Positions 1 through 53,754 of a stretch of 64,000 nt of DNA are shown here, one piece after another. This DNA is from an uncultured bacterium. Its GTDB lineage: Bacteria > Oederibacteriota > Oederibacteriia > Oederibacteriales > Oederibacteriaceae. A model generated the notes under the pieces. It did no database searches. It was not told where the DNA came from and saw nothing but the letters and a program-made list of their open reading frames with translations. The position numbers and the translations under genes are program-made. Every line of letters starts with the position of its first letter. Position 1 is the first letter of the stretch. The stretch lies in the NCBI GenBank assembly GCA_965112635.1, contig OZ218778.1, positions 1,845,807-1,909,806 of the forward strand, read 5' to 3'.

Positions 1-3000
1 CAGACCTACACGTTGACTAATACAGCTACCGTTACATCCACGAATACGAACACCCAGACCGCTACCGCCACGGCCACACAGACCTATTCTTTGACCAACA
101 CAGCTACAGCTACGGCCACGAACACAAACACGCGGACAGCTACCAGCACGGCCACTTACACGCTAACCAGCACCGCTACCGCCACGGCCACGCAGACCTA
201 TACTTTAACTAACACCGCTACAGCTACGGTTACGAATACAAACACGCGGACGGCCACAAGCACGGCTACCTATACTTTGACCAGCACCGCTACAGCTACG
301 AATACGGCCACGAACACGGCTACCAATACGGCTACTAGCACAGCTACAAATACGGCCACCCAGACGGCGACCTCAACCGCTACCGCCACAGCTACATCTA
401 CGGTTACCGCCACCAATACGGCCACCAGCACTACTACCAGCACAGCAACTAATACGACTACCAACACAGCTACTAATACAGCCACCCAGACCGCTACCGC
501 CACGGCCACACGGACCTATTCTTTGACCAACACAGCTACGAACACAGCTACACCAACGCTGACCTCAACTACTACCGCAACAGCTACATCTACGGTTACA
601 GCGACCAATACGACAACGAATACTGCAACAAATACGGCTACGAACACAACTACTCAGACAGCGACCTCAACTACTACTGCCACAGCTACATCCACGATTA
701 CAGCGACCAGCACGGCTACTAATACGGCCACTAACACAGCAACCAATACTGGGACAAATACTGCCACGAATACTGTTACCCAGACGATGACCGCAACTAT
801 TACTGTCACAGCTACATCTACAGCTTCAGCCACCAATTCGGCTACGAACACAGCTACTAACACGGCGACTAATACGGCCACGAACACGGCTACAAATACT
901 GCCACGAATACAGCCACCCAGACGGCGACCTCAACTGCTACCGCCACAGCTACATCTACGGTTACCGCCACCAATACGGCCACCAGCACTACTACCAGCA
1001 CAGCAACTAATACGACTACCAACACAGCTACTAATACAGCCACCCAGACCGCTACCGCCACGGCCACACAGACCTATTCTTTGACTAACACAGCTACCGC
1101 TACATCCACGAACACAAACACGCAGACGGCCACAAGCACGGCCACTTACACGCTAACCAGCACAGCTACGGCCACCGCTACGCAGACCTATACTTTGACC
1201 AGCACCGCTACAGCTACGGTTACGAATACAAACACGCGGACGGCCACAAGCACGGCTACCAATACGGCTACTAGCACAGCTACAAATACGGCCACCAACA
1301 CAGCTACGAACACAGCTACACCAACGCTGACCTCAACTACTACCGCAACAGCTACATCTACGGTTACAGCGACCAATACGACAACGAATACTGCAACAAA
1401 TACGGCTACGAACACAACTACTCAGACAGCGACCTCAACTACTACTGCCACAGCTACATCCACGATTACAGCGACCAGCACGGCTACTAATACGGCCACT
1501 AACACAGCAACCAATACTGGGACAAATACTGCCACGAATACTGTTACCCAGACGATGACCGCAACTATTACTGTCACAGCTACATCTACAGCTTCAGCCA
1601 CCAATTCGGCTACGAACACAGCTACTAACACGGCGACTAATACGGCCACGAACACGGCTACAAATACTGCCACGAATACAGCCACCCAGACGGCGACCTC
1701 AACTGCTACCGCCACAGCTACATCTACGGTTACCGCCACCAATACGGCCACCAGCACTACTACCAGCACAGCAACTAATACGACTACCAACACAGCTACT
1801 AATACAGCCACCCAGACCGCTACCGCCACGGCCACACAGACCTATTCTTTGACCAACACAGCTACAGCTACGGTTACGAATACAAACACGCGGACGGCCA
1901 CAAGCACGGCTACCAATACGGCTACTAGCACAGCTACAAATACGGCCACCAACACAGCTACGAACACAGCTACACCAACGCTGACCTCAACTACTACCGC
2001 CACAGCTACATCTACGGTTACAGCGACCAATACTTCTACGAATACAGCTACTAATACGCCCACCAATACAGCTACTTGGACTGCGACCCCAACCGCCACT
2101 GCCACATCAACATCTACAGTTACAGACACCAGTACAGCTACTTATACTGGGACAAATACGGCTACGAACACCACTACCAATACGGCCACTAACACGGCAA
2201 CCAACACAGCGACGAATACAGCTACAAGTACGGCAACCAGCACGAGTACCACGACAAATACGGTAACGAATACAGTTACTAACACAGCCACAAATACGGT
2301 TACTTGGACAATGACTAATACGGCTACCAACACAGCTACAAATACAGCCACCCAGACGGCGACCTCAACTGCTACCGCCACAGCTACATCTACGGTTACA
2401 GCGACCAATACGACAACGAATACTGCAACAAATACCGCAACGAACACAACTACTCAGACAGCGACCTCAACTACTACTGCCACAGCTACATCCACGATTA
2501 CAGCGACCAGCACGGCTACTAATACGGCCACTAAAACAGCAACCAATACTGGGACAAATACTGCCACGAATACTGTTACCCAGACGATGACCGCAACTAT
2601 TACTGTCACAGCTACATCTACGGTTACCGCAACCAATACGGCCACAAACACAGCTACGAATACGGCTTCTCAGACAACAACAGCAACAACTACTACTACA
2701 GCTACCAATACAGCTACTAATACGTCCACCAATACTGCTACTTGGACTGCGACCCTAACTGCCACTGCCACGTTAACATCTACAGTTACGGCCACCAGTA
2801 CAGCTACTTATACTGGGACAAATACGGCTACGAACACCGCTACCAATACAGCTACTTGGACAGCAACTAATACGGCCACCAACACAGCTACGAACACAAA
2901 TACTCAGACAGCGACCTCAACTGCTACTGCCACGGCTACGTCTACTAATACAGTAACCAATACGACAACCAATACGGCCACAAATACTGCAACAAATACA

Positions 3001-6000
3001 TCCACGATTACAGCTACCCAGACGGCAACAACAACTGCTACTGCCACTGCTACATCTACGGTTACAGCTACCAATACAGCTACTGATACGACAACGAATA
3101 CGGCCACAAATACGACTACGAACACCACTACCAATACGGTTACTAACACGGCAACAAATACAGCGACGAATACGGCTACCAGTACGGCAACCAGTACGAG
3201 TACCACTACGAACACAGCCACGAACACAGCCACTAATACTGCGACAAATACAGGCACAAATACTGCTACCCAGACGATGACATCAACTGTTACTGCCACA
3301 GCTACATCTACTGCTACAACTACCAATACGGCGACCAGCACGGCAACTAATACAGCTACGAATACAGCTTCTCAGACAGCAACCGCAACCCCTACCGCCA
3401 CAGCTACGGCTTCTAATACAACAACCAATACTGCAACAAATACTGTCACTACCACGACTACCAACACGGCCACTACTACAGTTACCAATACGGCTACAAA
3501 TACCACTACAGATACGGCAACTAATACGACTACCAGCACAGCTACAAACACAGCAACTCAGACTTCTACGAACACCACTACCAGCACAGCTACAAATACG
3601 GTTACAAATACGGCTACTTCTACAATAACCAACACAGCTTCGAGTACCGCTACAAACACAACAACTAATACGATTACCAATACTGCTACAAACACAGCGA
3701 CTCAGACTGTGACGAACACGGCTACCATTACAGCTACAAGCACGACTACAAACACAGCTACGAACACGGCAACTAGCACTGCGACAAATACAGCGACGAA
3801 TACAGCTACAAGTACTGCAACAAGTACGAGTTCCGCTACCAATACAGCTACCAACACTGCTACAAATACCGTCACTAATACTGCTACGAACACGGCAACC
3901 AATACTGCGACAAATACAACGACGATTACAGCTACCCAGACGGCGACCTTAACTACTACTACCACAGCTACATCTACGGTTACGGCAACCAACACGGCTT
4001 CTAATACAACAACAAATACTGCTACCAGCACGGCCACTAATACGGCAACAAATACTGCTACAAATACTGCCACGAATACTGCTACACAGACGGCGAGCTC
4101 AACTGTTACTGCCACAGCGACAGCTACATTGACAGCGACCAACACAACCACAAACACGACTTCCAATACAACTACGAACTCAGACACTCCAACAGCTACG
4201 AACACCGCTACCATTACAGTTACCAGTACGGCCACTAATACTATGACTAATACATCAACTAGTACTGGCACGAATACCAATACAACAACCCAAACAACCA
4301 CGAACACAACAACAAATACGGCTACTTGGACGGCGACTATTACTCCTACTAATACCACCACGAACACAGCTACAAACACGACTACAAACACAACCACGAA
4401 CACAGCAACTAACACTGCGACAATTACTTCAACTACTACCACTACCAATACTGCCACCAATACGGTTACTAACACTGCAAGCAATACTGCTACAAATACA
4501 GCGACGATTACTGCTACCCAGACGGCGACCTCAACTGCTACCGCCACAGCTACATCTACGGTTACAGCGACCATCACAACTACTAACACGACTACGAATA
4601 CCGCTACGAACACGACCACTAATACAGCTACCAATACAGCGACCAATACGGCTACGAATACCGCCACGAATACAACAACTAATACGACTACCAATACAGC
4701 TTCAAACACGGCAACCCAGACGGCTACGAACACCGCTACTATTACCTCTACAAACACGACTACAAACACAGCCACCAACACGGAAACTAACACTGTGACT
4801 ATTACTTCAACTACTACCGCTACCAATACTGCCACCAACACCGCGACGAGTACTGCAACTAATACAGCTACAAACACGACCACGGGAACCGTAACAAATA
4901 CTGCAACCAACACAGCGACTCAGACGGCTACGAGCACCACTACAAATACAGCTACCAATACGGCCACCAATACTGTGACCAATACATCAACTAGTACAGG
5001 TACGAATACCGATACGGCAACCCAAACAACTACGAATACAACAACAAATACGGCGACTTGGACGGCGACTAATACTCCTACTAATACCATCACGAACACT
5101 TCCACTAACACGACTACAAATACCACAACAAATACTGCAACTAATACGGTAACGAACACAAATACGATCACGAATACAGCGACCCAGACGATTACCAATA
5201 CTGTGACCAGTACAACAACAAGCACCACGACTTATACAACAACGAACACGAGCACCAGCACTAACACGGCGACTCAAACCGCAACGAATACAACTACAAG
5301 CACTGTTACAAATACAAGCACCCAAACAGCGACAAATACGACTACTCAGACCGCCACTCAAACAGCAACTCAGACAGAGACAGTTACTGCAACCGACACG
5401 GCAACTCAAACTGCCACCCAGACAATCACTCAGACAGCGTCAAGTACGGAGACCGTCACGAATACCACCACAGCAACCAGCACGACTACGACAACCAATA
5501 CAACTACTGCAACTTGTTCGTCTACCTTGACCGCAACTCCTACAGTGACCAGCACGTTGACAACGACCTTTACGGGGACAAGTTCAGCAACTCAAACGGC
5601 GACTGCAACTAGTACAAATACGAATACGAATACTGCAACAGGCACTACGACCAATACGGAAACTAATACAGCTACTCAGACTGCTTCGAGTACCGTGACA
5701 ACAACTGGCACGCCGACGAATACGGTTACCTCGACAGCCACTATTTCCCTTACATTCACAAATACAGTGACTCAAACCACAACAGCTACGGCTACTTTGA
5801 CGGTTACGACTACTACTACAAGTACAATTACAAATACTGCCACCACCACCAATACGGAGACATCGACATCTACCAGCACGACCACTGGTTCGGAGACTGC
5901 TACAAGTTCCGCGACAACGACGCCCACTAATACTGGTACCTCAACCACTACCGCAACGGAAACGATTACCGCTACTATAACTTGTACATTTACCGAAACT

Positions 6001-7974
6001 TACACGGAAACTAGCACATCAACTAATACAGCTACTCCTACAAATACCTGCACTGTAACTGTGACTACAACTTCAACTGAAACTATGACTTCCACCTGTT
6101 CTTACACTGCCACTTTGACAGATACAGTGACTTTAACTTGGACTGAAACAGCAACTTGTACTGAGACGGCAACCTGGACTGAAACAAGTTCACCAACAGC
6201 AACTGCCACGATCACGCTGACCCCAACCTCGACTCAGACAGGGACCCAAACGGCGACTCAGACTGATACGCAATCTGCAACCTCTACGGGCACCCCAACA
6301 AGCACTAACACAGTTTCGAATACAGTGACCCAGACAAGTACCAGCACTTTAACTTCAACGTTGTCATCTACCGGAACGACCACATCAACTGGGACAATAA
6401 CGAGCACGGGAACAATGACTATGACAGCGACTAATACAGGTACAGTGACGTTGAGTTCTACCTCAACCAATACCCCCACTCCAACTCCAACAAGTAGTGC
6501 CACCAATACGATTACGCTGACTTATACTCAAACTAAGACTGGCACCGTCACCACTACAGCAACACAAACAGCAACGGTGACCACGACAGGCACCATCACC
6601 CTTACCTTTACACAAACGGCTACATCTACGATGACCGCCACGACGACCATGACAGCAACGATCACCCTGACCAGTACTATTACTTTGACTTTTACGCAGA
6701 CGGCAACAGCTACTAACACGGCAACGATCACTCTGACTTTCACGAGCACCAATTCTGCTACAAACACTGATACAGCATCTAGGACGAGCACCGCCACCAT
6801 GACAGCGACTATTACTCTGACCCCAACTATCACCCAGACACCTACAACAACTACTACATATTCTTTGACCCTAACTCCGAGTTTAACCTTTACTTATTTG
6901 CCTTCTTCTACCCAAACCATGACAAGCACCATTAGCCCAACTTCATCCAAAACACCAACAATCACTTTGACATTTACCCAATCCTTAACAACGACTAATA
7001 CCGGTACCGTGACGGTTACCATGACCATCACTACTACCGGGACCATAACGGCTACCTCCACTTCAACACAAACTTATTCGAGGACGGCGACTATCACCCT
7101 CACTGCCACAATTTCCAATACGCCCTCTCAAACCCTAACGCTTACAATTACAACCACCTCGTCCCTCACGCCTACTTCGACTAACACCAGTACAGCAACA
7201 AGGACTGCGACAGTTACCGCGACGAGCATTGGAACCTCTACCCAAACATGGACCTTAACCACCACTCTGACCCTAACCTATACTCCCACTACCACTATGA
7301 CCATTACGCTCACCACGACCCCTACGACGACTCCAACGCCCTCACTTACCCTAACCAGCACCTATTCAGTCACGTCTTCCCAAACCTTCACTGCTAGCAC
7401 GACCTTCACGATCACTCCCACCCCTGGACCTTCTACTCTAACGGTCCAGGTTTTGGATGCGTTTGATGAACTGAGGTTGTCTGGGGCCACGGTTTCTATC
7501 ACAGGGCCTTCAGGAACGCTAACTGGCAGTACGGATGGACGGGGGAATGTTACCTTTAACGGACTAGTCTTTGGGTCATATACCGTAAGTGCTTCAATGA
7601 CCGGCTATAATGGATCTTCAGGGAATGCTGTGCTAGCTCAACTAAATAATAGTTTGTTGATACGGCTCTACACGCAGTACAAGTCCAGTGTCCCTTATCT
7701 GACCAAGAACATAATCAACCCACTGAAAAATGAGAGCCTTGAGATCGGATGTCTGCTTACTCAGAAAGAGCACGTTTTGATCAAGATATTTACCCTTTCT
7801 GGCGGGGCAGAGATCATCACTCTTGTTGATCAGGACATTAGTCAGGGTCGCTATGCTGTAGAATGGTTCGGCAAAACCATTAATGGTGACACTGTGGGCA
7901 ATGGGATTTATATAGTCTTTATTCAACTCGGGACTGACAGGTTCATCAAGAAAGTCGCTGTAGTTAAGCAATAA
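1..7974 (+). CDS. Giant surface/secreted protein, 5'-partial (>2,650 aa). About 2,400 residues of alternating Thr-X (TNTATNTAT...), then a CarboxypepD_reg-like beta-sandwich (~7441-7680) and a C-terminal FlgD-Ig/T9SS-CTD-like domain (~7690-7974)
   Basis: Frame 1 is open from nt 1 (QTYTLTNTAT...), so the N-terminus lies outside the window. Thr sits at every second position from residue 1 to about 2450. The C-terminus reads GATVSITGPSG..DGRGNVTFNGLVFGSYTVSASMTGY (CarboxypepD_reg pattern), then NPLKNESLEIG..VLIKIFTLSGGAEIITLVD..VEWFGKT.NGDTVGNGIYIVFIQL..KKVAVVKQ. The same C-terminal domain family is shared by all cargo proteins in this window. Confidence 0.8.
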   Translation, partial: QTYTLTNTATVTSTNTNTQTATATATQTYSLTNTATATATNTNTRTATSTATYTLTSTATATATQTYTLTNTATATVTNTNTRTATSTATYTLTSTATATNTATNTATNTATSTATNTATQTATSTATATATSTVTATNTATSTTTSTATNTTTNTATNTATQTATATATRTYSLTNTATNTATPTLTSTTTATATSTVTATNTTTNTATNTATNTTTQTATSTTTATATSTITATSTATNTATNTATNTGTNTATNTVTQTMTATITVTATSTASATNSATNTATNTATNTATNTATNTATNTATQTATSTATATATSTVTATNTATSTTTSTATNTTTNTATNTATQTATATATQTYSLTNTATATSTNTNTQTATSTATYTLTSTATATATQTYTLTSTATATVTNTNTRTATSTATNTATSTATNTATNTATNTATPTLTSTTTATATSTVTATNTTTNTATNTATNTTTQTATSTTTATATSTITATSTATNTATNTATNTGTNTATNTVTQTMTATITVTATSTASATNSATNTATNTATNTATNTATNTATNTATQTATSTATATATSTVTATNTATSTTTSTATNTTTNTATNTATQTATATATQTYSLTNTATATVTNTNTRTATSTATNTATSTATNTATNTATNTATPTLTSTTTATATSTVTATNTSTNTATNTPTNTATWTATPTATATSTSTVTDTSTATYTGTNTATNTTTNTATNTATNTATNTATSTATSTSTTTNTVTNTVTNTATNTVTWTMTNTATNTATNTATQTATSTATATATSTVTATNTTTNTATNTATNTTTQTATSTTTATATSTITATSTATNTATKTATNTGTNTATNTVTQTMTATITVTATSTVTATNTATNTATNTASQTTTATTTTTATNTATNTSTNTATWTATLTATATLTSTVTATSTATYTGTNTATNTATNTATWTATNTATNTATNTNTQTATSTATATATSTNTVTNTTTNTATNTATNTSTITATQTATTTATATATSTVTATNTATDTTTNTATNTTTNTTTNTVTNTATNTATNTATSTATSTSTTTNTATNTATNTATNTGTNTATQTMTSTVTATATSTATTTNTATSTATNTATNTASQTATATPTATATASNTTTNTATNTVTTTTTNTATTTVTNTATNTTTDTATNTTTSTATNTATQTSTNTTTSTATNTVTNTATSTITNTASSTATNTTTNTITNTATNTATQTVTNTATITATSTTTNTATNTATSTATNTATNTATSTATSTSSATNTATNTATNTVTNTATNTATNTATNTTTITATQTATLTTTTTATSTVTATNTASNTTTNTATSTATNTATNTATNTATNTATQTASSTVTATATATLTATNTTTNTTSNTTTNSDTPTATNTATITVTSTATNTMTNTSTSTGTNTNTTTQTTTNTTTNTATWTATITPTNTTTNTATNTTTNTTTNTATNTATITSTTTTTNTATNTVTNTASNTATNTATITATQTATSTATATATSTVTATITTTNTTTNTATNTTTNTATNTATNTATNTATNTTTNTTTNTASNTATQTATNTATITSTNTTTNTATNTETNTVTITSTTTATNTATNTATSTATNTATNTTTGTVTNTATNTATQTATSTTTNTATNTATNTVTNTSTSTGTNTDTATQTTTNTTTNTATWTATNTPTNTITNTSTNTTTNTTTNTATNTVTNTNTITNTATQTITNTVTSTTTSTTTYTTTNTSTSTNTATQTATNTTTSTVTNTSTQTATNTTTQTATQTATQTETVTATDTATQTATQTITQTASSTETVTNTTTATSTTTTTNTTTATCSSTLTATPTVTSTLTTTFTGTSSATQTATATSTNTNTNTATGTTTNTETNTATQTASSTVTTTGTPTNTVTSTATISLTFTNTVTQTTTATATLTVTTTTTSTITNTATTTNTETSTSTSTTTGSETATSSATTTPTNTGTSTTTATETITATITCTFTETYTETSTSTNTATPTNTCTVTVTTTSTETMTSTCSYTATLTDTVTLTWTETATCTETATWTETSSPTATATITLTPTSTQTGTQTATQTDTQSATSTGTPTSTNTVSNTVTQTSTSTLTSTLSSTGTTTSTGTITSTGTMTMTATNTGTVTLSSTSTNTPTPTPTSSATNTITLTYTQTKTGTVTTTATQTATVTTTGTITLTFTQTATSTMTATTTMTATITLTSTITLTFTQTATATNTATITLTFTSTNSATNTDTASRTSTATMTATITLTPTITQTPTTTTTYSLTLTPSLTFTYLPSSTQTMTSTISPTSSKTPTITLTFTQSLTTTNTGTVTVTMTITTTGTITATSTSTQTYSRTATITLTATISNTPSQTLTLTITTTSSLTPTSTNTSTATRTATVTATSIGTSTQTWTLTTTLTLTYTPTTTMTITLTTTPTTTPTPSLTLTSTYSVTSSQTFTASTTFTITPTPGPSTLTVQVLDAFDELRLSGATVSITGPSGTLTGSTDGRGNVTFNGLVFGSYTVSASMTGYNGSSGNAVLAQLNNSLLIRLYTQYKSSVPYLTKNIINPLKNESLEIGCLLTQKEHVLIKIFTLSGGAEIITLVDQDISQGRYAVEWFGKTINGDTVGNGIYIVFIQLGTDRFIKKVAVVKQ
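290..2650 (+). repeat. Near-perfect long tandem DNA repeats inside the giant ORF (units of about 560-780 bp; e.g. 537-1304 vs 1305-2072, 343-520 vs 903-1080 vs 1683-1860)
   Basis: Minus-strand antisense ORFs 654..1067 and 1422..1835 give identical 137-aa translations. Visible nucleotide identity over hundreds of bp (e.g. gccacccagacggcgacctcaactgctaccgccacagctacatctacggttaccgccaccaatacggccaccagcactactaccagc recurs three times). Confidence 0.85.
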
Positions 7975-8030
7975 ATACACATGATTTTCGGTTGTTTTAT
8001 CTGGGAGGAACAGTTGAAAGGCTGGCTTAA

Positions 8031-8426
8031 ATGAACTGGAAAAAGGTTGTTCTTTGTATTTTTATTACCCTTTTCTCCTTATGGGGCAATCTTGCATTCA
8101 GCCAAGGCATTCCATGGCTGGACCAAGATGGGTTGTTTCTGGGCCATAACAAGATCAATCCGCTGAATCATGAGTCTGTATCTGTTGTCTATCATTTGGC
8201 GCAGGACACCCATGTGGTCATAAAAATTTATGATCTTTCCGGCCAGAAACTTATCAGGACATTAGTGGACGGGAATTTTGGAGGGAGTTGGTCATACCAA
8301 GTTTTTTGGGATGGCACCAGTAGAAGTGGAGATGTTGTTGGAAATGGTATTTACGTCATTCAGTTAGTAACCAAAAGTGTAAATATACTCAAATTCATTG
8401 CCGTGGTTAAAACCACAGGCAGTTAA
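8031..8426 (+). CDS. Small secreted protein made only of a signal peptide plus one FlgD-Ig/CTD-like domain (CTD-only minigene; paralog of the giant ORF C-terminus)
   Basis: MNWKKVVLCIFITLFSLWGNLAFSQG signal peptide. NPLNHESVSV..VVIKIYDLSGQKLIRTLVD..VFWDGTSRSGDVVGNGIYVIQL..KFIAVVK closely parallels the last 90 aa of 1..7974. GGGAGG RBS at ~8001. Confidence 0.7.
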   Translation: MNWKKVVLCIFITLFSLWGNLAFSQGIPWLDQDGLFLGHNKINPLNHESVSVVYHLAQDTHVVIKIYDLSGQKLIRTLVDGNFGGSWSYQVFWDGTSRSGDVVGNGIYVIQLVTKSVNILKFIAVVKTTGS

Positions 8427-8432
8427 AGGGGG

Positions 8433-10085
8433 GTGGGTAGGGTGCAAATCTTTATGGTTGGTTTGGTCATTCTGTTGATGTGGGCGCCCAATGTTTTTGG
8501 CACGGCTTTTGGAACCACGGGCCAAAATTTTCTAACCATTGGCGTTGGTGCAAGGCCGACGGCGATGGGAGGGGCTTTCGTCGGTCTAGCTGACGACCCT
8601 GATGCGATCCACTGGAACCCAGCTGGTTTGATTAATCTTGAAGACTATGAAATTTCCCTGATGCATAGCGCTCTCATCGGAGACGTCAGCTATGATACCG
8701 TTTCCTACGCCCAGCCCATAGCTGTTGATTATGGTTATATTGGAGCCGGCATTGCCTATTTAGGTGTCCCCCCGTTTGATAATACCGTTGGTCGCGAAAA
8801 CTCGATCTCTGCCCATAATTTCCTGTTAGACATTGCCTATGCGAATCGATTGAGCGATATGTTTGATATAGGCAATCCAATCGGCCGGCGTTTAAGTTTG
8901 GGACTAGGTATAAAATGGATCAATTTTTCGATCGATAACTTGGTGAGTTATAATGACGTGGCCTTCGATGTTGGCACCTATTTCATCACTCCCTGGGAAC
9001 CGTTAACTCTGGGCGCGAGTTTGCAAAATTTAGGTATTTCTCTGGACCCTGCCGCTGTTTCAGACCCACTGCCTTTGACCTTTAGATGCGGAGCGTGTGT
9101 CCACATTGCAGACCTATCTATGCAGCTTGACCTGATCCAGCAAGTGGATAATGACGCCGTGATAGGATGGGGAACAGAATATAATTTCCAGGATTTATTG
9201 TTCCTAAGGGGTGGTTATGCGATTGGCGGGCCTTCTCTAAACGGGTTGTCCGGGATAACATGCGGTGCCGGATGGAGGATGAGGTCCTTTGAGTTTGATT
9301 ATACCTTTGTACCTATGGGGGAGTTGGGCGCCACCCACCGTTTTTCTCTTAACGTTTCCTTTGAACAGGAGCTCAAAGAATTACGTAAGAATCTGGCCGT
9401 GGAATCCAAAGACAAGGTCCAAAAAGATGAAATCATTGCTTTATATAAGAAGGGCAATGAATTCTATTATCAGGGGAACTACACTCAAGCTTTGGATGCC
9501 TGGCAGCAGATCCTGATCGTGGACCCGAAAAATCAAAAAGCGCAGGAAAGAATCACTTTTACCACGAACCTTTTGAACAAGAAGTTCACGGAAAACGAAG
9601 CAACGCAGTATTATGAACAGGGAATGAGTGATTATTCGGCTGGTGACTACGAAAAGGCTTTGGAACAATGGGCTAGTGTCCAAAAGATAGTTCCCGATTA
9701 CTTGAATATAAAGGAGATGATAAGTAAGGCAGAGGCGAAGTTGGCTGAAAAGAGAGTCGACAGGGCTGGAGTGGGTCCTTTGCTTGAAGCTGCTCGTACT
9801 TCCTATAAACAAGGGCAACTGCTGGATGCCGTCAAAGATTGGAGAAAAGTTTTAGAAGCAAATCCTCAAAATCAGGAAGCCCTGAAGTCGTTAAAGGATG
9901 CTAATGCGGAGATTTTAAACTTGGCAAAGAAAACCTATGATAAGGGGTTAGAATTTTACACCAATGGGGATTACGATAATGCCATTGCCACCTGGAAAAA
10001 TGTGGTAATACTTCAGCCTGATCACCCAACCGTATTGGGTGATATTGAGAGAGCCCAGAAAGAGGTAAATTCGTTGAAAAAATAA
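8433..10085 (+). CDS. FadL/TodX/PorV-family outer-membrane beta-barrel fused to a C-terminal ~240-aa TPR-like extension
   Basis: N-terminal signal peptide. FadL-family N-motif GARPTAMGGAFVGLADDPDAIHWNPAGL. Barrel ends with a beta-signal-like FSLNVSF, followed by four or more TPR-like repeats (YYQGNYTQALDAWQQILIVDPKN..., YEKALEQW..., WRKVLEANPQN..., YDNAIATWKNVVILQPDH). The start may be GTG 8433/8442 or ATG 8454. Confidence 0.65.
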   Translation: MGRVQIFMVGLVILLMWAPNVFGTAFGTTGQNFLTIGVGARPTAMGGAFVGLADDPDAIHWNPAGLINLEDYEISLMHSALIGDVSYDTVSYAQPIAVDYGYIGAGIAYLGVPPFDNTVGRENSISAHNFLLDIAYANRLSDMFDIGNPIGRRLSLGLGIKWINFSIDNLVSYNDVAFDVGTYFITPWEPLTLGASLQNLGISLDPAAVSDPLPLTFRCGACVHIADLSMQLDLIQQVDNDAVIGWGTEYNFQDLLFLRGGYAIGGPSLNGLSGITCGAGWRMRSFEFDYTFVPMGELGATHRFSLNVSFEQELKELRKNLAVESKDKVQKDEIIALYKKGNEFYYQGNYTQALDAWQQILIVDPKNQKAQERITFTTNLLNKKFTENEATQYYEQGMSDYSAGDYEKALEQWASVQKIVPDYLNIKEMISKAEAKLAEKRVDRAGVGPLLEAARTSYKQGQLLDAVKDWRKVLEANPQNQEALKSLKDANAEILNLAKKTYDKGLEFYTNGDYDNAIATWKNVVILQPDHPTVLGDIERAQKEVNSLKK

Positions 10086-14278: not shown

Positions 14279-14294
14279 GGAAAGGAGTTAGTCC

Positions 14295-32508: not shown

Positions 32509-35175
32509 ATGGGCAGACGACTCGTTTTACTTATCATCCTATTTTGGTCTGTTTCGGCCTGGAAAGCTGAGGCGGCAGTGTACTGGTATATGGAGGCGCC
32601 CGGCTGGGTCGAACCCACCGGCAATCCCGATTGGACGAACCTGTCGTACTTTAATGTCTACAACGAGCTGACCACCACGGCCACAGGCCCAATCCTCGTG
32701 ACCTATACCCTGGCGAATGGTCTCACTTTTAAGCCCGTCTCTTTCGGATTACAGCCGTCCAGCGTCAACTATGACGCCGGCACCGGGGTGACCACCGTGA
32801 CCTATAATTTGGGCAGTATGGCCGGACAGACCAATAACTATGGTTATTGCGGCTTTGCTATCAATTACACCACGGTCAACCCCACGACCCTGATCCAGGA
32901 AAACCAGCAATTCACTGTGACAGCGACCCTGAGCGGGGCCAGCAGCGTCAGTGCCAACCCCCAGAGCTTCCAGGCGCCCGCTTTATTCGAGACCGTCGGC
33001 AAGAACATTGATCCCGACCCGATCGAGGCGGTGCCGAGCACGGCCACGGCCAACCTCTATTTGGAAACTTCGCAATATTATAACTGCTCCAACCTCGTGG
33101 TCTGGGATACGCTTCCCAACGGCACCTCCTACATCCCCGGCACCAGTTATCTGGATAACGAGACCAGCGATGAACCCGGGTCCGGGACCCAGCTCTGCCG
33201 TCCTGACGGGACTTCGCTGCTGGTGTGGTCTGTTCCAGCTGACCCTTGGACCCTGGCCGGGTCAGACCCCGTCCTGAGCTACGGGTTCACCATCAACTCG
33301 AATTACAGCGTTACGGGCTGCGACAGCGCCGGAGCGCCGGTCTATTGCACCGACATGCTGCCCAATCTCGTGGGTGACAGCTTTAATTACGCCAGCATCA
33401 GCGGCCAGTCCCCGGCCAACGCGGGATCCGCCCTGCAAACCGGTGTGTTTGCGGACATCGATATCGACGACCCCTCCATCACCAAGACCATCGGGAGCAT
33501 TACCGACAGCCAGGGTAACCCTGTTTCGGGTAGTTATGTCACGCCCGGCGATATCGTGACCTACAGCATCACGGTAGTTTCTCCGACGGCACCTACCCAT
33601 GACCTCAAGGTCAGGGATTTCCTGCCATCATCCATGGCTTTTTTGGGTTCCCTTACCAATTACACCACGACCGGAGGCGTGCCCGCGCCGACCCAGAGTT
33701 TTGTCAATTCCAATTTGTGCTACTGGACCTGGTCCGCGGATTTTCCCAAGGGCGGGTCCTGGAACGTCACCTTCCAGACCCAAGTGCTGGATAATACCTA
33801 TTTGCCCGACCCCGGGGCCTCGACCCTGACCAACATGGGCGATTTTTGGGACACTAATACCTCGGGGACCACCTCGGGGTTGGGACAGTACGATGCCCCG
33901 GATTTGACCTACCAGAACAATGTGGTTACGACCAAGAGCGCCAGCAAAAGCACGGGTACTGGCGGCGATATCATTAACTATACGATCGCGGTCACCAATA
34001 ACGGCGGCAGGGCCATTAACAATGTTGAGGTCTTTGACACCATCCCGGCCGGCATGACCTATGTCAGCAGCACGCCCACGGCCAGTTCCGAGGCCGTCAA
34101 CGGGGACTCCAGCACCACGGTCAAATGGAACAACCTGGGGATTCTGAACCCCGGCAGTTTCCTGACCCTCTATGTGTCCGCCTCGGTCAATCCGGGCGAC
34201 CCGGGAGGGGAGACACTGACCAATTTTGTCGCCCCTGTTTTTTACTCCTCCCAGCTGACCCCTGGAGCGCCCGGGAGGAACTATTACAACGGCGTTACGG
34301 CTTTGGCCAGCGTGCAGGTGGCCACCTGGACCATGACCCCGACCCAGACCAGGACAGCGACCGCCACCAGCACGCAGACCTATACCGCCAGCGCGACCGC
34401 CACCCCCACCAGCACCGCGACCCAGACCTCGACGGCGACGCAGACCCTGACCAGGACCTATTCGCTTACCGGGACGCAGACTTTCACTCTCACGCAGACC
34501 CTGACCCCGTCCCTGACGCTGACCAGCAGTTACACGGCCACCGCCACCAGCACGGCCACGCAGACATCCACTTCGACCTTGACGCTGACCCCATCCGAAA
34601 CTTTTACCCCCAGCGAGACGGCCACTTACAGCCAAACCTCCACGCAGTCCTATACGGTCACCCTGACCCTGACCCCTTCCAAGACTTTTACCCCCAGCGA
34701 GACGGCCACGATCACTTTGACCTGGACCATCACCTGCACTTCGACCAATTCCTATACCAGCACGCAAACCCTGACCCCTTGCCAGACCCTGACGCCATCC
34801 CAGACCCTGACGCCATCCCTGACCCAGACCCATACCCCAACCTTGACGCCGTCCCACACCGCGACAGCCACGCCTACCTTTATCACCACACCTCCCGCAG
34901 TCGGGACATCCTTTATTTATCCCTCACCGGCTACCGGGGACACGGCGGCCATTGCTTTTTTCATGTCCGTGCCAGGGAACTTCAAGATACGGGTGTATAA
35001 CGAGGCAGCCGAACTGGTGGAGACCGTAGAGGGGAATATGCAGGCAGGGCCGCAGTTGAGCATGATCCATACTAGGGACTATGTTTCAGGAGTTTACTTG
35101 TATATTATCAAGTTGGATTACGGGTCGCAGGGTTCCATCAAAATCGGTCCCAAGAAGTTCATTGTGTTGCATTAG
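32509..35175 (+). CDS. Secreted cargo protein: DUF11/CARDB-like repeat domains, TQT/TxT stalk, FlgD-Ig/CTD-like C-terminal domain
   Basis: Signal peptide. DUF11-type segments (VVWDTLPNGTSYIPGTSY; TIAVTNNGGRAINNVEVFDTIPAGMTYVSS). Stalk TQTRTATATSTQTYTASATATPTSTATQTSTATQTLT... (~34330-34900). C-terminus FIYPSPATGDTAAIAFF..FKIRVYNEAAELVETVEG......GVYLYIIKL. Confidence 0.7.
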   Translation: MGRRLVLLIILFWSVSAWKAEAAVYWYMEAPGWVEPTGNPDWTNLSYFNVYNELTTTATGPILVTYTLANGLTFKPVSFGLQPSSVNYDAGTGVTTVTYNLGSMAGQTNNYGYCGFAINYTTVNPTTLIQENQQFTVTATLSGASSVSANPQSFQAPALFETVGKNIDPDPIEAVPSTATANLYLETSQYYNCSNLVVWDTLPNGTSYIPGTSYLDNETSDEPGSGTQLCRPDGTSLLVWSVPADPWTLAGSDPVLSYGFTINSNYSVTGCDSAGAPVYCTDMLPNLVGDSFNYASISGQSPANAGSALQTGVFADIDIDDPSITKTIGSITDSQGNPVSGSYVTPGDIVTYSITVVSPTAPTHDLKVRDFLPSSMAFLGSLTNYTTTGGVPAPTQSFVNSNLCYWTWSADFPKGGSWNVTFQTQVLDNTYLPDPGASTLTNMGDFWDTNTSGTTSGLGQYDAPDLTYQNNVVTTKSASKSTGTGGDIINYTIAVTNNGGRAINNVEVFDTIPAGMTYVSSTPTASSEAVNGDSSTTVKWNNLGILNPGSFLTLYVSASVNPGDPGGETLTNFVAPVFYSSQLTPGAPGRNYYNGVTALASVQVATWTMTPTQTRTATATSTQTYTASATATPTSTATQTSTATQTLTRTYSLTGTQTFTLTQTLTPSLTLTSSYTATATSTATQTSTSTLTLTPSETFTPSETATYSQTSTQSYTVTLTLTPSKTFTPSETATITLTWTITCTSTNSYTSTQTLTPCQTLTPSQTLTPSLTQTHTPTLTPSHTATATPTFITTPPAVGTSFIYPSPATGDTAAIAFFMSVPGNFKIRVYNEAAELVETVEGNMQAGPQLSMIHTRDYVSGVYLYIIKLDYGSQGSIKIGPKKFIVLH

Positions 35176-37783: not shown

Positions 37784-37912
37784 GCTTTTTCCCTTTCCGT
37801 AACTTGATAATCGATCCCTAACTCTCTATACTTTAACAGAAAACTATTGTAATCTCATTTGCAGGCACGAACAATACCTGAAGAAAAACCATTGGTAAAA
37901 AAGAAGAAAACC

Positions 37913-39079
37913 ATGTTCCCAGGGAAACGACGAATCATCGCCTTGTTGGTGGTCTTTGGGGCCGTTGCGGGTTGGTCGGCAGTCCATGCTCAGACGAATA
38001 CTGCGACCAATACGGATACTGACACTGAGACGGCTACTGCAACCGCAACTCCCTCCGCTTCCGCGACAACCACCATGACTCTTACAGTCACCCCAACTCC
38101 CACGGCTTATTTATCCCTTATGAAGGTTGTGACGCCCAGCGGGGTTATCCTTCTTCCCGCGACTACCCAGACCCCAGTCACTTTTACCATCAGCTATTCC
38201 AATACGGGAGGCGAAGTTCTGACCAATGTGATGATTTGGGATACGCTTAATACCGGTTTGTGCTACCTGACCACCACGGCAGGGGCAGCCCTGACCGCCG
38301 ACAGCGTCATTTCTTGCACTTCAGGTTCTTTCCTGGTCTGGAACGCGCCATCTCCTCTAGTTCCCGGGAGCAGCGGCAATATTGTTTTTTCAGCCCTAAT
38401 TAATAATGTGCCCTATTACACCAATATAACTAATTTTGCGCTGGCCGGAGCCGACCAGCTAGCCAGCCCCGTGACCTCCACGACCACCAGTTCAATAATT
38501 ATTTATACCCTTCCTCAGGCGGGGAGCGCTCCTCCTACCTTTGTGTTGAATAATTTGTCCCTGCAGTTATCTTGGACCCCCGGCATAGCTGGAAGTTATC
38601 CTATAGCGGGATATCCTGTTTGGCGCAGCGCTGACGGTGGCTTTTCCTACTCGCAAATCACTTTGACCGGAAGCAGCATTACCAGTTGCACCGACCAACT
38701 TCCCGCAGTCCAAACGTTTATTTACCTCGTGAAGGTGATGGATACCCTGGGCAATGAAGTCGCTTATCCGCCTCTTGTCCTTAAACCTTTGCCGGTCAGC
38801 ATGGCACTGGACCACAACAGTTTTAATCCAGCCAAGGGCGGAACCTTGAACGTCAAATATCACCTCAGACAGCTCGGCAGTGTGTCCATCTACATCTATA
38901 ACCTCAGGGGAAATCTGGTCAGGAAATTGGTGGATGACACGGAGACTTTCGGGGAACATGTGGCCCAGTGGGACGGAAAGAACGGACAAGGAGATACAGT
39001 CAGCAGCGGGGTTTATTTGTTCCATTTAGAAGCCGCGGGAGGGGATGCCGTGAACCAGAGAGTGGCGGTCATCAAGTGA
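37913..39079 (+). CDS. Secreted cargo protein: short TxT stalk, DUF11-like and Fn3-like domains, FlgD-Ig/CTD-like C-terminus
   Basis: MFPGKRRIIALLVVFGAVAGWSAVHA signal peptide, then TNTATNTDTDTETATATATPSASATTT. C-terminus NSFNPAKGGTLNVKYHL..VSIYIYNLRGNLVRKLVD...AQWDGKNGQGDTVSSGVYLFHLEA. Its stop TGA 39077-39079 overlaps the ATG of the next gene. Confidence 0.7.
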   Translation: MFPGKRRIIALLVVFGAVAGWSAVHAQTNTATNTDTDTETATATATPSASATTTMTLTVTPTPTAYLSLMKVVTPSGVILLPATTQTPVTFTISYSNTGGEVLTNVMIWDTLNTGLCYLTTTAGAALTADSVISCTSGSFLVWNAPSPLVPGSSGNIVFSALINNVPYYTNITNFALAGADQLASPVTSTTTSSIIIYTLPQAGSAPPTFVLNNLSLQLSWTPGIAGSYPIAGYPVWRSADGGFSYSQITLTGSSITSCTDQLPAVQTFIYLVKVMDTLGNEVAYPPLVLKPLPVSMALDHNSFNPAKGGTLNVKYHLRQLGSVSIYIYNLRGNLVRKLVDDTETFGEHVAQWDGKNGQGDTVSSGVYLFHLEAAGGDAVNQRVAVIK

Positions 39080-40059
39080 TGGATAATTTCTTTCACCCAG
39101 GAAAATGCAGGAAGATCAATCCCGTGATCTTTGCTTGCTTATTTGTATTGTTCCCAACTTTTTTTATTGGGGTCTTTCCCAGCTTGAGCTGGGGCGGGGG
39201 AGCAGGAACAACTGGCGCTGATATTATGGCAGAGGAGTTGGGGGCCAGGCCCAGGGGCATGGGAGGCGCTTATGGGGCTGTGGCCAATGACGCCAATGCC
39301 GTAGATTATAATCCAGCGGGATTAACTCAGATCCTAAGGTCCAATGCTACCCTAACCCACTGGATCGAATTGGACGGCACGACCCTTGATTTCATTAGCT
39401 ATGTTTTGCCCCTGGGAGCCATGGGGACCGTGGCGGGCAGTGCGACCCTCCGTCAAGTCCCTTCCATCAGCAATACGACCGCTGAACCGTCAGTCAATGT
39501 GGACGATATTCTGGTGGGTCTATCCGGGGCAACAAAACTGGAGAATTGGTGGCCTGGTTTGTCGGGCGGAATGTCCTTAAAATTTGTCAGCTCCACCCTG
39601 GGAAACTATACGGCTTATACGGGAGCCCTTGACGCAGGGGTCCTCTTGGAGGACCTGCCCTACCATTCCAAGGCGGCTTTGGCCATGGAAAATTTAGGTA
39701 TGCCTATCAAATACATTGATGTGGCCGACCCCCTTCCGTTTTGCTTAAGGTTGGCCGGCTGCAGTCAGATCTTTGAAGATAGCGTCAAGGAGCTATTAGT
39801 AGCCGCTGATCTCGTTCAACCAATCAATGGCTACGCCAACTTGGACATCGGGGCTGAATTCATTTACCTCGGGTTCGTAGCTTTCAGGGGAGGTTATACC
39901 TTGGATTTTCAGGAAGGAACAAGGGGGCTCGTGGGCGGCCTTGGGATCAAGTATGTTTGGGATAAGACCGATTACAGACTGGATTATGCCTACAACCCTT
40001 TTTACTGGAAAAATAGTTACACGCCCACCCATCTGATCTCTCTGTCCGTATTCTTTTAA
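39079..40059 (+). CDS. FadL/TodX/PorV-family outer-membrane beta-barrel (cargo-adjacent paralog)
   Basis: Signal peptide, GARPRGMGGAYGAVANDANAVDYNPAGL N-motif, C-terminal beta-signal ...LISLSVFF. ATG 39079 shares its A with the upstream stop (TGATG). Confidence 0.65.
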   Translation: MDNFFHPGKCRKINPVIFACLFVLFPTFFIGVFPSLSWGGGAGTTGADIMAEELGARPRGMGGAYGAVANDANAVDYNPAGLTQILRSNATLTHWIELDGTTLDFISYVLPLGAMGTVAGSATLRQVPSISNTTAEPSVNVDDILVGLSGATKLENWWPGLSGGMSLKFVSSTLGNYTAYTGALDAGVLLEDLPYHSKAALAMENLGMPIKYIDVADPLPFCLRLAGCSQIFEDSVKELLVAADLVQPINGYANLDIGAEFIYLGFVAFRGGYTLDFQEGTRGLVGGLGIKYVWDKTDYRLDYAYNPFYWKNSYTPTHLISLSVFF

Positions 40060-51662: not shown

Positions 51663-52583
51663 TTAGAAATCAACGGTCAAAGAAAAGCGATGGGCCTCGC
51701 CTAAACTGGCATAAGGCACAAAGGCGTAATCAAAATGATAATACATCAAACCCAGTAAAAGGGAATAGCCAAAACCCGTCGTGAACATGAAAGGCAGGGA
51801 GGTCTGCTCGATCAAGCCGAGCCTGACTGCCAGGTCCTGCGCGCCCCAACGGGAGTTGTATTCCAATCCCAGATGGATCCCCAAATCCTGGCCAATGAAA
51901 TCATAGGAGGTTTCAGCGGAGGCCAGAATATTGCGGGGTTGTTTTGTTTCTTCCTGCTGGCCGCCGATGTTTTCCATGAGTTCTCCCAAGGCGAACTTTT
52001 TAGCGATCCCTATCCTCAACAGCAAAGGCAGGGAATATCCGCCGAGCTCGGACCCGAGATTCTGCAGGGTCACGCCCAAGGAAGTTGCTTCGGCAAAAGG
52101 CCGGATGATGCCTCCCACATCAAAAGCGAAGCCGCTAAATCCCGCTCCCACAAAATCTTCGTGCAGCAGTTTAGCCGTGATGCCAGCGTGGAAGATCTTG
52201 GAAAAGGTCGTGCCATAACTTAATTCGCCGAACAAGGCTGAGAAATTGAGGCTGTCCGCGCTGGGCACGAACATGCCCGGCAAAGGGAAGGACGGGTCCG
52301 TGGGCGTCATTTCATCGGCTTTGGAAACAGGGGAGGACCCCAGACGATTAACGCAAATGCTGAGGCCGCTATGGTTGGAAAGGGGCAGGGCATAGGCCGC
52401 GCTGTCAAAACTGGTGCCCAGAAACCAGTTGATATGGGTGAAAGAAAGTTCCTGGAAGGACAGGTCGCCGAGGCCGGCCGGATTCCAATAGGTGGACAAG
52501 GTGCCGCTGGCCACGGCGCAATAGGCGTCCCCCAGACTGGACGGCCGGGAACCGGTGGCTATCAAAAACTCTTCGCCAGCCAC
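51663..52583 (-). CDS. FadL/TodX/PorV-family outer-membrane beta-barrel (cargo-cluster paralog); true N-terminus probably lies upstream (~52667)
   Basis: GSRPSSLGDAYCAVASGTLSTYWNPAGL N-motif; C-terminal ...HRFSLTVDF. The in-frame upstream sequence encodes a signal peptide (KSQAIAFLILFSILTHPLNSFAAG) with no canonical start codon. Confidence 0.65.
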   Translation of the reverse strand: MAGEEFLIATGSRPSSLGDAYCAVASGTLSTYWNPAGLGDLSFQELSFTHINWFLGTSFDSAAYALPLSNHSGLSICVNRLGSSPVSKADEMTPTDPSFPLPGMFVPSADSLNFSALFGELSYGTTFSKIFHAGITAKLLHEDFVGAGFSGFAFDVGGIIRPFAEATSLGVTLQNLGSELGGYSLPLLLRIGIAKKFALGELMENIGGQQEETKQPRNILASAETSYDFIGQDLGIHLGLEYNSRWGAQDLAVRLGLIEQTSLPFMFTTGFGYSLLLGLMYYHFDYAFVPYASLGEAHRFSLTVDF

Positions 52584-52780
52584 TGTGCCTGCCGCGAATG
52601 AATTCAGGGGATGCGTCAGAATAGAAAAAAGGATAAGGAATGCGATGGCTTGAGATTTTTGTGTCGTAGGGCTAACCTCCTAAAATATCGGGTCACTATC
52701 GGCAGAGAACCCAGGTATGGCTAGAGAATAATATTATACTACTGGTAAGAGAAGACCTGACCCAGGTTCACCATCATTCT

Positions 52781-53725
52781 TTAGAAGCTCGCTCCCAGGG
52801 ATATTCTTTGGGCATCACCCAGCTGGTCCATAGGCACAAAAGCGTAATCCAGGGCATATGCGCTGCTGCCGATTTCCAGGGCAAGCCCCACCCCGCAGCT
52901 CAGCAGCAGGTAGCTGCTGGTGGACTTGGCTATACCGCCGCGCAAGGCCAGGATGGTGCTGCCCATCTTAGGGGCCCATTCCAGGCCCAAATGAAACCCA
53001 TAGTCCTGGCTGTTCACCAGGTCGGTCAGGTCCAGGCTGGCCAGAATATCTTTGGCCGCCGTCTTATTCTCCGGGGCTAGGGCCAGCAGCTCCTCAATAT
53101 CCGTATAGCTCATCCTTTTGGCTATTCCGGCCCTGGCCATGAGGGGAAACGCAAACCCGTCCAATCCCGTGCTCATATTCTGCACAACCAGACCGGCTAT
53201 ATCCGTATCCGATAGTCTGACCTGCGCTCCCAGATCTCCTGCAAACCCGGTTGCGCTGTCGTCCAGCAGGTTTTCCTGGATACATTTGACATTGGCGCCG
53301 ACATTGAGCATGGGCAGCAGGCCCCAGCCAAACCCTATTCCGCCCATGATAGACCCTACACTGACCGTCTGGTTTGCAGGAGAGTATTGGCCGGACAAGG
53401 GGTTATCAGGGCTAGGCAATGTTTCATTGGTGACCGTGATGTCCGGGATACCCAGACGGCTTACAAACAGGCTTAACCCACTCTTTTTGCCTATGTTGAC
53501 GGCATAAGCCACAGTATCTAGGGAGATATTCTGCATCCACATCAGGTGGGTCAGGGAGATATCCTGGTATTGGAGTCTAGCCAGGCCAGCCGGGTTCCAA
53601 AAAGGGGCGAGAGCGCCGGTGACCACGGCTGTGTAGGCCTCAGCCATACCGCTGGGACGGGAACCGACCCCCAGCAACAGCTCATCGCCCGCGGTCTCTC
53701 CGGCCCCAAAGCAGTGGCTCACCAA
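52781..53725 (-). CDS. FadL/TodX/PorV-family outer-membrane beta-barrel (second paralog); true N-terminus probably lies upstream (~53785)
   Basis: GSRPSGMAEAYTAVVTGALAPFWNPAGL; C-terminal ...QRISLGASF. In-frame upstream RHYRIDKIITLICLCSLCLVSHCFGAG is a signal peptide lacking an ATG/GTG/TTG start. Confidence 0.65.
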   Translation of the reverse strand: MVSHCFGAGETAGDELLLGVGSRPSGMAEAYTAVVTGALAPFWNPAGLARLQYQDISLTHLMWMQNISLDTVAYAVNIGKKSGLSLFVSRLGIPDITVTNETLPSPDNPLSGQYSPANQTVSVGSIMGGIGFGWGLLPMLNVGANVKCIQENLLDDSATGFAGDLGAQVRLSDTDIAGLVVQNMSTGLDGFAFPLMARAGIAKRMSYTDIEELLALAPENKTAAKDILASLDLTDLVNSQDYGFHLGLEWAPKMGSTILALRGGIAKSTSSYLLLSCGVGLALEIGSSAYALDYAFVPMDQLGDAQRISLGASF

Positions 53726-53754
53726 ACACAGGGAACACAGGCAGATAAGAGTGA

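Follow-up and report, generated by a model that had tools for sequence, protein, structure and literature searches.

What is the role of the outer-membrane barrels encoded beside genes for tail-bearing secreted proteins in a 64,000-nt stretch of contig OZ218778.1 (positions 1,845,807 to 1,909,806; hereafter the window) from an uncultured bacterium? An earlier inspection of the letters alone, made without database searches (the sequence-only reading), had noticed that proteins sharing a C-terminal domain (CTD) like that of type IX secretion system (T9SS) cargo are repeatedly paired with FadL/PorV-family barrels, and had raised the possibility of a cargo-specific shuttle or anchor system. All open reading frames (ORFs) on which that proposal drew are present in the window (Table 1; cargo proteins are referred to below by the first coordinate of their gene, and the one that runs off the 5′ end as the giant protein). 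The pairing itself was borne out, both in the window and in related genomes. By sequence and by a model of barrel 1, the barrels are members of the PorV/PorQ family and not FadL/TodX transporters, and we consider it probable that each of them is a dedicated PorV/PorQ-type outer-membrane carrier or anchor for the CTD surface protein or proteins whose genes directly precede it in its operon.

Seven proteins, not six as first counted, end in an alignable β-sandwich of about 90 residues, which is C-terminal in all seven. Three of them pass the T9SS tail model TIGR04183 with its cut-off of 23 bits (the 8031 protein with 25.7, the locus 2 cargo with 26.3 and the 56088 protein with 29.5 bits) and two just miss it (the 32509 protein with 20.0 and the 53755 protein with 21.7 bits). 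The FlgD_ig model PF13860 (cut-off 27) is likewise passed by three, namely the locus 2 cargo (37.2 bits), the 56088 protein (45.7-56.7 bits) and the 59810 protein (36.6 bits), the last of which scores 25.4 bits with Por_Secre_tail (PF18962), below the cut-off of 27. The CTD of the giant protein stays below the cut-offs (FlgD_ig 19.7, Por_Secre_tail 15.9 bits) and is 44% identical to that of the 8031 protein; its CarboxypepD_reg domain scores 36.4 bits. Among named proteins, the best sequence-level matches of the tails are the C-termini of the PorU and PorZ models, and the tail of the 53755 protein matches the PorZ C-terminus with 35.6 bits. The AlphaFold2 model of the 8031 protein is a seven-strand β-sandwich with a core predicted local distance difference test score (pLDDT) above 90, for which the best structures in PDB are PorU (6za2) and PorZ (5m11), followed by FlgD. 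PorU and PorZ are the two T9SS proteins that retain their CTD and are bound to, and anchored by, PorV and PorQ, respectively (PMC10202324). Of the motifs initially ascribed to the tails, WDG is missing from the 32509 protein, and YPNP turned out to be limited to the three tails of locus 3, being replaced by YPSP in the 32509 protein and by INP or FNP at loci 1 and 2. Taken by sequence and modelled fold, the tails are thus classed as T9SS type-A/FlgD-Ig-like.

The four barrels are pairwise 28-36% identical and have in common G[AS]RP, A[YF].A, an invariant NPAGL and a C-terminal …S[LV]..F. All four pass the PorV/PorQ family model NF033709 (cut-off 90 bits), from 161.5 bits for barrel 1 down to 93.1 bits for barrel 4, while none reaches an equivalog model: the best barrel scores are 62.9 bits for PorV (NF033710, 250 bits needed), 77.0 bits for PorQ (NF033711, 220 bits needed) and 65.8 bits for PorV2 (NF052325, 325 bits needed). 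The FadL/TodX model Toluene_X (PF03349, cut-off 29.7) gives only 18.8 bits with barrel 1 and no match with barrels 2-4. None of the four matches the PorP/SprF model PF11751 at E ≤ 0.1, and a precomputed match to that model is present on only a few distant homologues. The Treponema family UPF0164 (PF03687, cut-off 21.4) is passed by barrel 1 with 31.5 bits, the scores of barrels 2, 4 and 3 being 20.0, 20.7 and 12.0. When a profile of the four barrels was compared with the sequences in PDB, the sole match was PorV of Flavobacterium johnsoniae (6H3I chain F, E = 1e-18), with no FadL or TodX at E ≤ 1. The fold agrees with this assignment for barrel 1, the one barrel covered by an AlphaFold2 model. 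In that model (pLDDT 88.5) a short helical plug at the N-terminus is followed by 14 strands and by an all-helical tetratricopeptide repeat (TPR) domain of about 240 residues, and Foldseek places PorV first (8gl6_F and 6h3i_F, template-modelling score 0.63-0.67, E = 5e-12), FadL and TbuX being weaker (0.46-0.51, E = 3e-7). The NPA motif of the hatch does not discriminate FadL from PorV, because PorV aligns across the same motif in the profile search; the continuous strand 3 of the barrel 1 model is weak evidence against a FadL-type S3 kink. Thus, the tests of the barrels against PorV, PorQ, FadL and TodX profiles suggested in the sequence-only reading came out on the side of PorV/PorQ and not of a fatty-acid or hydrocarbon transporter. 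The N-terminal motif with NPAGL proposed there was found in all four barrels, but the aromatic β-signal said to end them is internal in barrel 1 (…LNVSF, residue 310), because the TPR domain of about 240 residues comes after it. TPR families are matched in this C-terminal domain, which by the model is presumably periplasmic.

Gene order ties the two families together. Three of the four barrel genes in the window are directly preceded by a tail gene on the same strand, with a gap of 7 nt (barrel 1), a 1-nt ATG/stop overlap (barrel 2) or a gap of about 30 nt (barrel 4), and this in a window where tail-bearing genes are about seven of roughly 50. Each barrel had been described as sitting immediately beside a cargo gene; this holds for those three but not for barrel 3 (51663), which adjoins and is preceded by barrel 4, although it too is on the same strand as, and downstream of, CTD genes. 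A scan of GTDB r232 species genomes with an alignment of the four barrels yielded 346 confirmed relatives (best match 37% identical), of which the best 80 loci were kept; these are mostly from Elusimicrobiota/Endomicrobia, with others from Firestonebacteria, FCPU426, Goldbacteria, Poribacteria, Hydrogenedentota, Zixibacteria and Zhuqueibacterota. Given that best match, the r232 representatives do not include the species from which the window comes. CTDs in these loci were sought with a hidden Markov model made from the window tails and iterated on the loci (a separate profile search with the seven CTDs covered 344 candidates), and a barrel was counted as linked if a C-terminal CTD ended less than 300 nt upstream on the same strand. 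By this definition 43 of 90 barrels are linked (40 of 86 outside the window). Among the other genes of the related loci only 18 of 774 carry a CTD, as against 40 of the 86 genes upstream of barrels (odds ratio 36, Fisher p = 7e-31), and adjacency is therefore present beyond the window as well. The linked barrels outside the window are mostly from Elusimicrobiota, the others from Firestonebacteria, Zixibacteria and Zhuqueibacterota, and several genomes have at least two to three such barrels among the best 80 loci. The linked cargo is varied (PQQ/BamB-like propellers, NHL, Kelch-like and DUF11 proteins, adhesin repeats), the tail being its one constant part.

The pairs also share a history. Across the 43 pairs, barrel distances correlate with CTD distances (Mantel r = 0.85, p = 2e-4), r being 0.30 when only pairs whose barrels diverge by more than 60% are counted, and the barrel-CTD pair is inherited as a unit. 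Within the window, tails {c1,c2,c4} and {c6,c7}, with c5 standing alone, are mirrored by barrels {1,2} and {3,4}; two tail types go with two barrels at locus 3, and two similar tails with one barrel at locus 1. This congruence is suggestive, the numbers being small.

How, then, might a barrel serve its cargo? By inspection, every cargo protein but the giant one, whose N-terminus falls outside the window, begins with a signal peptide (six of seven), and passage across the inner membrane would be via Sec. Since a plugged 14-strand barrel cannot pass folded cargo, the outer membrane would be crossed through an SprA-like translocon encoded elsewhere in the genome or by another route. The CTD β-sandwich may then stay uncleaved and dock on the extracellular face of its cognate barrel, a step we infer from homology to PorV-CTD, PorV-PorU, PorQ-PorZ and SprF-SprB together with the conserved gene linkage. 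Proteases, FG-GAP and DUF11 adhesins and a Thr-rich stalk exceeding 2,500 aa would in this way be tethered at the cell surface. The cargo types found in the window (an S8 subtilase with prodomain and DUF11, an FG-GAP protein, several DUF11 proteins and a near-pure Thr-x protein of more than 2,650 aa) are, as far as their sequences tell, typical surface proteins. Some barrels may do more than anchor. A periplasmic extension of at least 100 aa is present on 27 of 83 barrels, and such an extension, of TPR type in barrel 1 and of TPR or OmpA type in about a third of relatives, might link the anchor to periplasmic partners or to peptidoglycan, doing in one chain what PorP and PorE do as a complex.

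In every CTD protein of the window except the CTD-only 8031 protein, the tail is immediately preceded by an alternating (Thr/Ser-x)n stretch, 2,478 aa long in the giant ORF and 370, 190, 170, 42 and 28 aa long in the other five. The stalk of the giant ORF is 49% Thr and is encoded by imperfect DNA repeats with periods of 90-144 nt. This repeat accounts for the extreme GC/AT skew of positions 1-8000, for the long antisense ORFs there and for the break in the ENA assembly at that point. The longest such stretch in 61 CTD proteins of the 80 related loci is 28 aa, and the Thr-x stalk is therefore specific to the source organism, in which it may form an extended, O-glycosylated spacer. Small CTD-only ORFs (122-194 aa) also lie upstream of barrels in three related loci (L010, L017 and L028), at distances of 50-520 nt; the 8031 protein could be a cap, placeholder or regulator of its barrel.

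Several observations weigh against a role of the barrels as cognate anchors and have to be set beside the linkage. About half of the barrel relatives have no CTD gene upstream, for example those of rumen Endomicrobia and of the sampled FCPU426 loci, and the upstream genes without a match to our CTD model have no Pfam CTD either (they include a CCA-adding enzyme and TPR proteins). The correlation of distances is confounded by co-inheritance of the pair, so that the covariation check proposed in the sequence-only reading did return a correlation, but one in which physical coevolution is not separable from shared ancestry. The mature barrels are about 285 aa long, with predicted extracellular loops of at most 12 residues in the model, compared with 367-402 aa for PorV, which is about 90 residues longer. 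PorV wraps the CTD with long loops (PMC10994853), and the geometry of the CTD contact may consequently differ from that in PorV. Neither the 64-kb window nor the annotated neighbours in related loci contain a SprA, PorKLMN or PorU gene, and PorW/SprE is likewise missing from the window genes. Finally, one related locus (L064, 9989-12004) encodes a natural fusion protein in which a PorV/PorQ-like barrel is joined to two FlgD-Ig-like domains and to a peptidoglycan-binding domain like OmpA_C, downstream of a gene for a CsgG/LpoB-like plus VWA protein. There FlgD-Ig lies on the periplasmic side of the barrel, and so a CTD need not be extracellular.

The unlinked barrels have some order of their own. 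In eight loci of rumen and gut Endomicrobia (L008, L020, L023, L024, L027, L030, L037 and L038) the closest barrel lies in one conserved context without a CTD gene, most of these loci having a divergent gene of 215-235 aa upstream, and families of 195, 416 and 101 aa recurring downstream. These barrels seem to be orthologues, one "housekeeping" member of the family that stands apart from the paralogs linked to cargo. Clustering of the neighbours in the 80 loci revealed no third conserved component, and none of the neighbour families is present in more than 13 loci. Giant proteins upstream of barrels (in L061 and L041) were considered as SprA homologues but have no match to SprA, PorU or PorZ, and the recurrent large cargo families of Elusimicrobiota, considered as PorU or PorZ, match these in their C-terminal tails only. 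The barrel family as a whole is large: 47,299 representatives of 50%-identity clusters are found at E ≤ 0.001 and 11,678 at E ≤ 1e-30, and many of those in non-Bacteroidota metagenome-assembled genomes are already named "PorV/PorQ family protein" by NCBI.

That surface proteins may have barrels of their own is not a new principle. The sequence-only reading held the Bacteroidetes shuttle to be a single-copy gene, which is right for PorV, the single-copy and sole shuttle for all type-A cargo (PMC12618676). It is not right for the barrels at large: besides the PorQ-PorZ pair, F. johnsoniae has about ten PorP/SprF-like FadL-family barrels, often encoded beside their cognate type-B CTD cargo, and cargo-specific barrels are thus not without precedent (PMC12618676, PMC9143113). 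Type-B cargo is anchored by these genetically linked PorP/SprF shuttles, PorP binding the TPR/OmpA protein PorE (PMC12618676, PMC9143113). The systems of F. johnsoniae (SprB-SprF) and P. gingivalis (PG1035-PorP-PorE) resemble ours in having a 14-stranded FadL-family barrel beside CTD cargo and several paralogs per genome (PMC12618676, PMC9143113); they anchor the uncleaved CTD at the surface and connect to periplasmic PorE (TPR-WD40-OmpA_C). In contrast, the window barrels belong to the PorV/PorQ subfamily, the tails are type-A/FlgD-Ig-like and not type B, TPR or OmpA is fused to the barrel in some cases, and the organism is not a member of Bacteroidota. Hence, what differs from the principle already described is the barrel subfamily, the tail type, the periplasmic module fused in some cases and the phylum.

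The nearest counterparts by homology are the pairs PorV-PorU and PorQ-PorZ, which have barrels of the same family (NF033709) and to whose tails the window CTDs are most similar in sequence and modelled fold. In both P. gingivalis and F. johnsoniae we take porU to lie directly upstream of porV, the gene order seen in the window. Unlike in those pairs, the cargo here is neither a C25 sortase nor PorZ, there are many pairs per genome and not one, and the equivalog cut-offs are unmet. PorV on the SprA translocon (PDB 6H3I, 8GL6) is the best and only solved sequence homologue and the best fold match, with the NPA-containing plug in common, but long PorV loops protrude into SprA (PMC10994853) and one PorV serves all type-A cargo (PMC12618676). 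Barrel 1 also resembles the UPF0164 proteins of Treponema pallidum (TP0548, TP0859 and TP0865), in which a 14-stranded barrel is followed by a C-terminal periplasmic helical extension containing TPR (PMC8407342); the treponemal proteins are read as fatty-acid importers with no adjacent CTD cargo reported, and barrels 2-4 fall below the PF03687 cut-off. The likeness to Slam (TPR with a 14-stranded barrel, a gene next to that of the substrate, surface display) is an analogy only, Slam having N-terminal TPR, a DUF560-type barrel and lipoprotein substrates.

The SecA encoded in the window is 65% identical to that of candidate division FCPU426, 64% to that of Firestonebacteria and 62% to that of Goldbacteria, in agreement with the non-Bacteroidetes lineage supposed in the sequence-only reading. 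Judged by these identities, the organism is a deep relative of FCPU426, Firestonebacteria and Goldbacteria; it falls outside Bacteroidota, and the phyla named as its closest relatives do not belong to the Fibrobacteres-Chlorobi-Bacteroidetes superphylum. It is a diderm, since the window encodes Lnt, a porin and an O-antigen-ligase-like protein. Our literature search found no description of the barrel-tail pairing and nothing relevant on PorV or T9SS in Elusimicrobia, Elusimicrobiota, Goldbacteria or Firestonebacteria. In the literature, T9SS signals and shuttles are confined to Bacteroidota, type-A cargo goes via one PorV, and only type-B cargo has cognate gene-linked shuttles (PMC10202324, PMC12618676). 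What is new here is a type-A-like tail systematically gene-linked to its own PorV/PorQ-like barrel in phyla outside that superphylum. Should the barrels be cognate anchors, surface proteomes could be predicted by a simple rule in many uncultured phyla, the paralogous pairs would form natural sets for studying CTD-barrel recognition, and there would be a handle on the evolution of the T9SS attachment module and on whether the module works without SprA.

Which larger system the barrels belong to is less clear than their probable role as anchors. The organism may have an ordinary complete T9SS, with SprA/Sov, PorKLMN and PorU elsewhere in the genome and the barrels as extra PorV/PorQ paralogs beyond Bacteroidota, an explanation that would compete with the novelty of the finding and not with the anchor role. 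The barrels and tails are clear homologues of T9SS parts, and the absence of core genes from a 64-kb window says little, given that T9SS genes of Bacteroidota are scattered (PMC10202324). However, reviews confine the T9SS core and CTDs to Bacteroidota (PMC10202324, PMC5445135), we found no publication on T9SS in Elusimicrobiota, Firestonebacteria or Goldbacteria, the window has no core gene, and the barrels miss the PorV, PorQ and PorV2 equivalog cut-offs by wide margins. We therefore regard a complete T9SS as possible but somewhat doubtful. More tentative still is the idea that Elusimicrobiota and the FCPU426/Firestonebacteria-like lineage lack SprA and PorKLMN and that cargo-linked PorV/PorQ-like barrels, with their fused TPR or OmpA, form the core of a separate CTD display pathway, which could be the ancestor or a minimal relative of the attachment module in the T9SS of Bacteroidota.

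The barrel together with its periplasmic TPR might also be a self-contained export and display module, which would recruit the CTD and mediate or nucleate passage through the outer membrane in the manner of Slam or two-partner secretion, with no SprA-type translocon. One-cargo-one-barrel operons are indeed widespread in phyla not known for T9SS, small CTD-only proteins lie beside some barrels, and the TPR domain fused to barrel 1 scores 31.5 bits with TPR_Slam (PF24575), just under the cut-off of 35.2. Yet this TPR is C-terminal, so that the domain order is the reverse of that in Slam, and there is neither a POTRA domain nor any DUF560 match in the barrels. Moreover, the N-terminal domain plugs the modelled 14-strand barrel, the lumen of which is too small to let folded cargo or a 2,650-aa protein through, and barrels of the PorV type are carriers, not channels (PMC10994853), all of which makes such a module unlikely.

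An importer would fit even less well. If the barrels were FadL-like importers of hydrophobic small molecules, they would be merely co-transcribed with surface enzymes and adhesins, and the shared CTD would be a common Ig-like module. In favour of this are the membership in the FadL superfamily (14 strands, NPA motif in the N-terminal hatch), the score of barrel 1 above the PF03687 cut-off, and the reading of the related treponemal UPF0164 proteins, of which some have TPR helices at the C-terminus, as fatty-acid transporters in Treponema pallidum (PMC8407342). The Toluene_X score of barrel 1 (18.8 against 29.7 bits), the PDB profile match to PorV (1e-18) and to no FadL or TodX, the fold nearer to PorV and the alignment of PorV across that same NPA motif argue the other way, and a 36-fold enrichment of one C-terminal domain upstream, across unrelated cargo, is unexpected for a nutrient importer; we consider this explanation very improbable. 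Least probable of all is a periplasmic tether, with the cargo held beneath the outer membrane by a CTD bound to the periplasmic TPR or to the barrel's inner face: the TPR/OmpA extensions are periplasmic by topology, as are the FlgD-Ig domains of the L064 fusion, but the extension is on only about a third of barrels while barrels free of it are paired as well, cargo such as an S8 protease with prodomain, FG-GAP and DUF11 proteins or a Thr-rich stalk of over 2,500 aa is typical of surface proteins, and homologous CTDs bind the outer face of PorV (PMC10994853).

Table 1. Tail-bearing (CTD) genes and barrel genes of the window. Coordinates count from the first letter of the window; T-x, alternating (Thr/Ser-x)n.
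Gene	Coordinates	Strand	Product	Content
Locus 1 giant cargo gene	1..7974	+	>2,650 aa	Runs past the 5′ end of the window; ~2,480-aa alternating (Thr/Ser-x)n stalk, CarboxypepD_reg-like Ig domain, C-terminal T9SS/FlgD-Ig-like CTD (~7690-7971)
Locus 1 small secreted protein	8031..8426	+	131 aa	Signal peptide and CTD only
Barrel 1, locus 1	8433..10085	+	550 aa	Signal peptide, N-terminal plug with NPAGL, predicted 14-stranded PorV/PorQ-family barrel (aa 1-310, nt 8433-9362), C-terminal TPR domain (aa ~311-550)
Orphan CTD protein	32509..35175	+	888 aa	DUF11 domain, 190-aa T-x stalk, divergent CTD; no barrel adjoining
Locus 2 cargo	37859..39079 (likely start ATG 37913)	+		Signal peptide, short T-x stretch, DUF11-like domain, CTD
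Barrel 2, locus 2	39079..40059	+		C-terminal end …SVFF; NF033709 105.5 bits
Barrel 3, locus 3	51663..52667 (listed ORF start GTG 52583)	-		NF033709 102 bits
Barrel 4, locus 3	52781..53767 (listed ORF start TTG 53725)	-		NF033709 93.1 bits
Locus 3 cargo	53755..55992	-	745 aa	Fervidolysin-like prodomain, S8 subtilase (Peptidase_S8 114.6 bits), DUF11 domain, CTD
Locus 3 cargo	56088..59744	-	1,218 aa	Signal peptide, FG-GAP repeats (58.7 bits), T-x stalk, internal FlgD-Ig domains, CTD
Locus 3 cargo	59810..63373	-	1,187 aa	Signal peptide, DUF11-like domain, 370-aa T-x stalk, internal FlgD-Ig domains, CTD

The starts of some barrel genes are unusual. The database copy of barrel 1 begins three residues later than the ORF given here. 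For barrels 3 and 4, a convincing in-frame signal peptide is found only 5′ of the first ATG, GTG or TTG (52584-52682 and 53726-53845, respectively, both on the - strand). Upstream of barrel 3, AGGAGG (52681-52676) is followed after an 8-nt spacer by ACG at 52667 and then by the signal peptide TQKSQAIAFLILFSILTHPLNSFA/AGT. The signal peptide upstream of barrel 4 reads …DKIITLICLCSLCLVSHCFG/AGE, with no ATG, GTG or TTG there; in the upstream reading …I-D-K-IITLICLCSLCLVSHCFG/AG, the only candidate starts are ATT at 53767, ATA at 53758 and ATC at 53755, which overlap the end of the subtilase gene. Possible causes are initiation at a non-canonical codon, point errors of assembly and gene decay.

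Some neighbours of the three loci complete the picture of the window. The next gene on the same strand after barrel 3, about 460 nt away, encodes an ATPase of the type II secretion system/type IV pilus kind (49784-51199, - strand; T2SSE 433 bits), beside which there are no further type II secretion or pilus genes. Past locus 2 and a ComF-like gene lies the gene for a 198-aa Gly/Ser-rich protein (40857-41453) that ends in YYF, has no Pfam match and is possibly a small outer-membrane barrel, followed by that for a 480-aa protein (41487-42929) that has an FlgD-Ig-like domain in its interior (aa 355-405) and a hydrophobic helix at its C-terminus. At locus 1, a promoter and terminator scan of 7600-10400 was uninformative. 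The region 3′ of barrel 1 (10192-14654) encodes a membrane protein of 666 aa that combines HEAT repeats with a long coiled coil and, beyond it, a partner-switching module consisting of a STAS protein and a fusion of anti-sigma-kinase-like HATPase, HAMP and SpoIIE phosphatase; the same gene order is found in the ENA contig.

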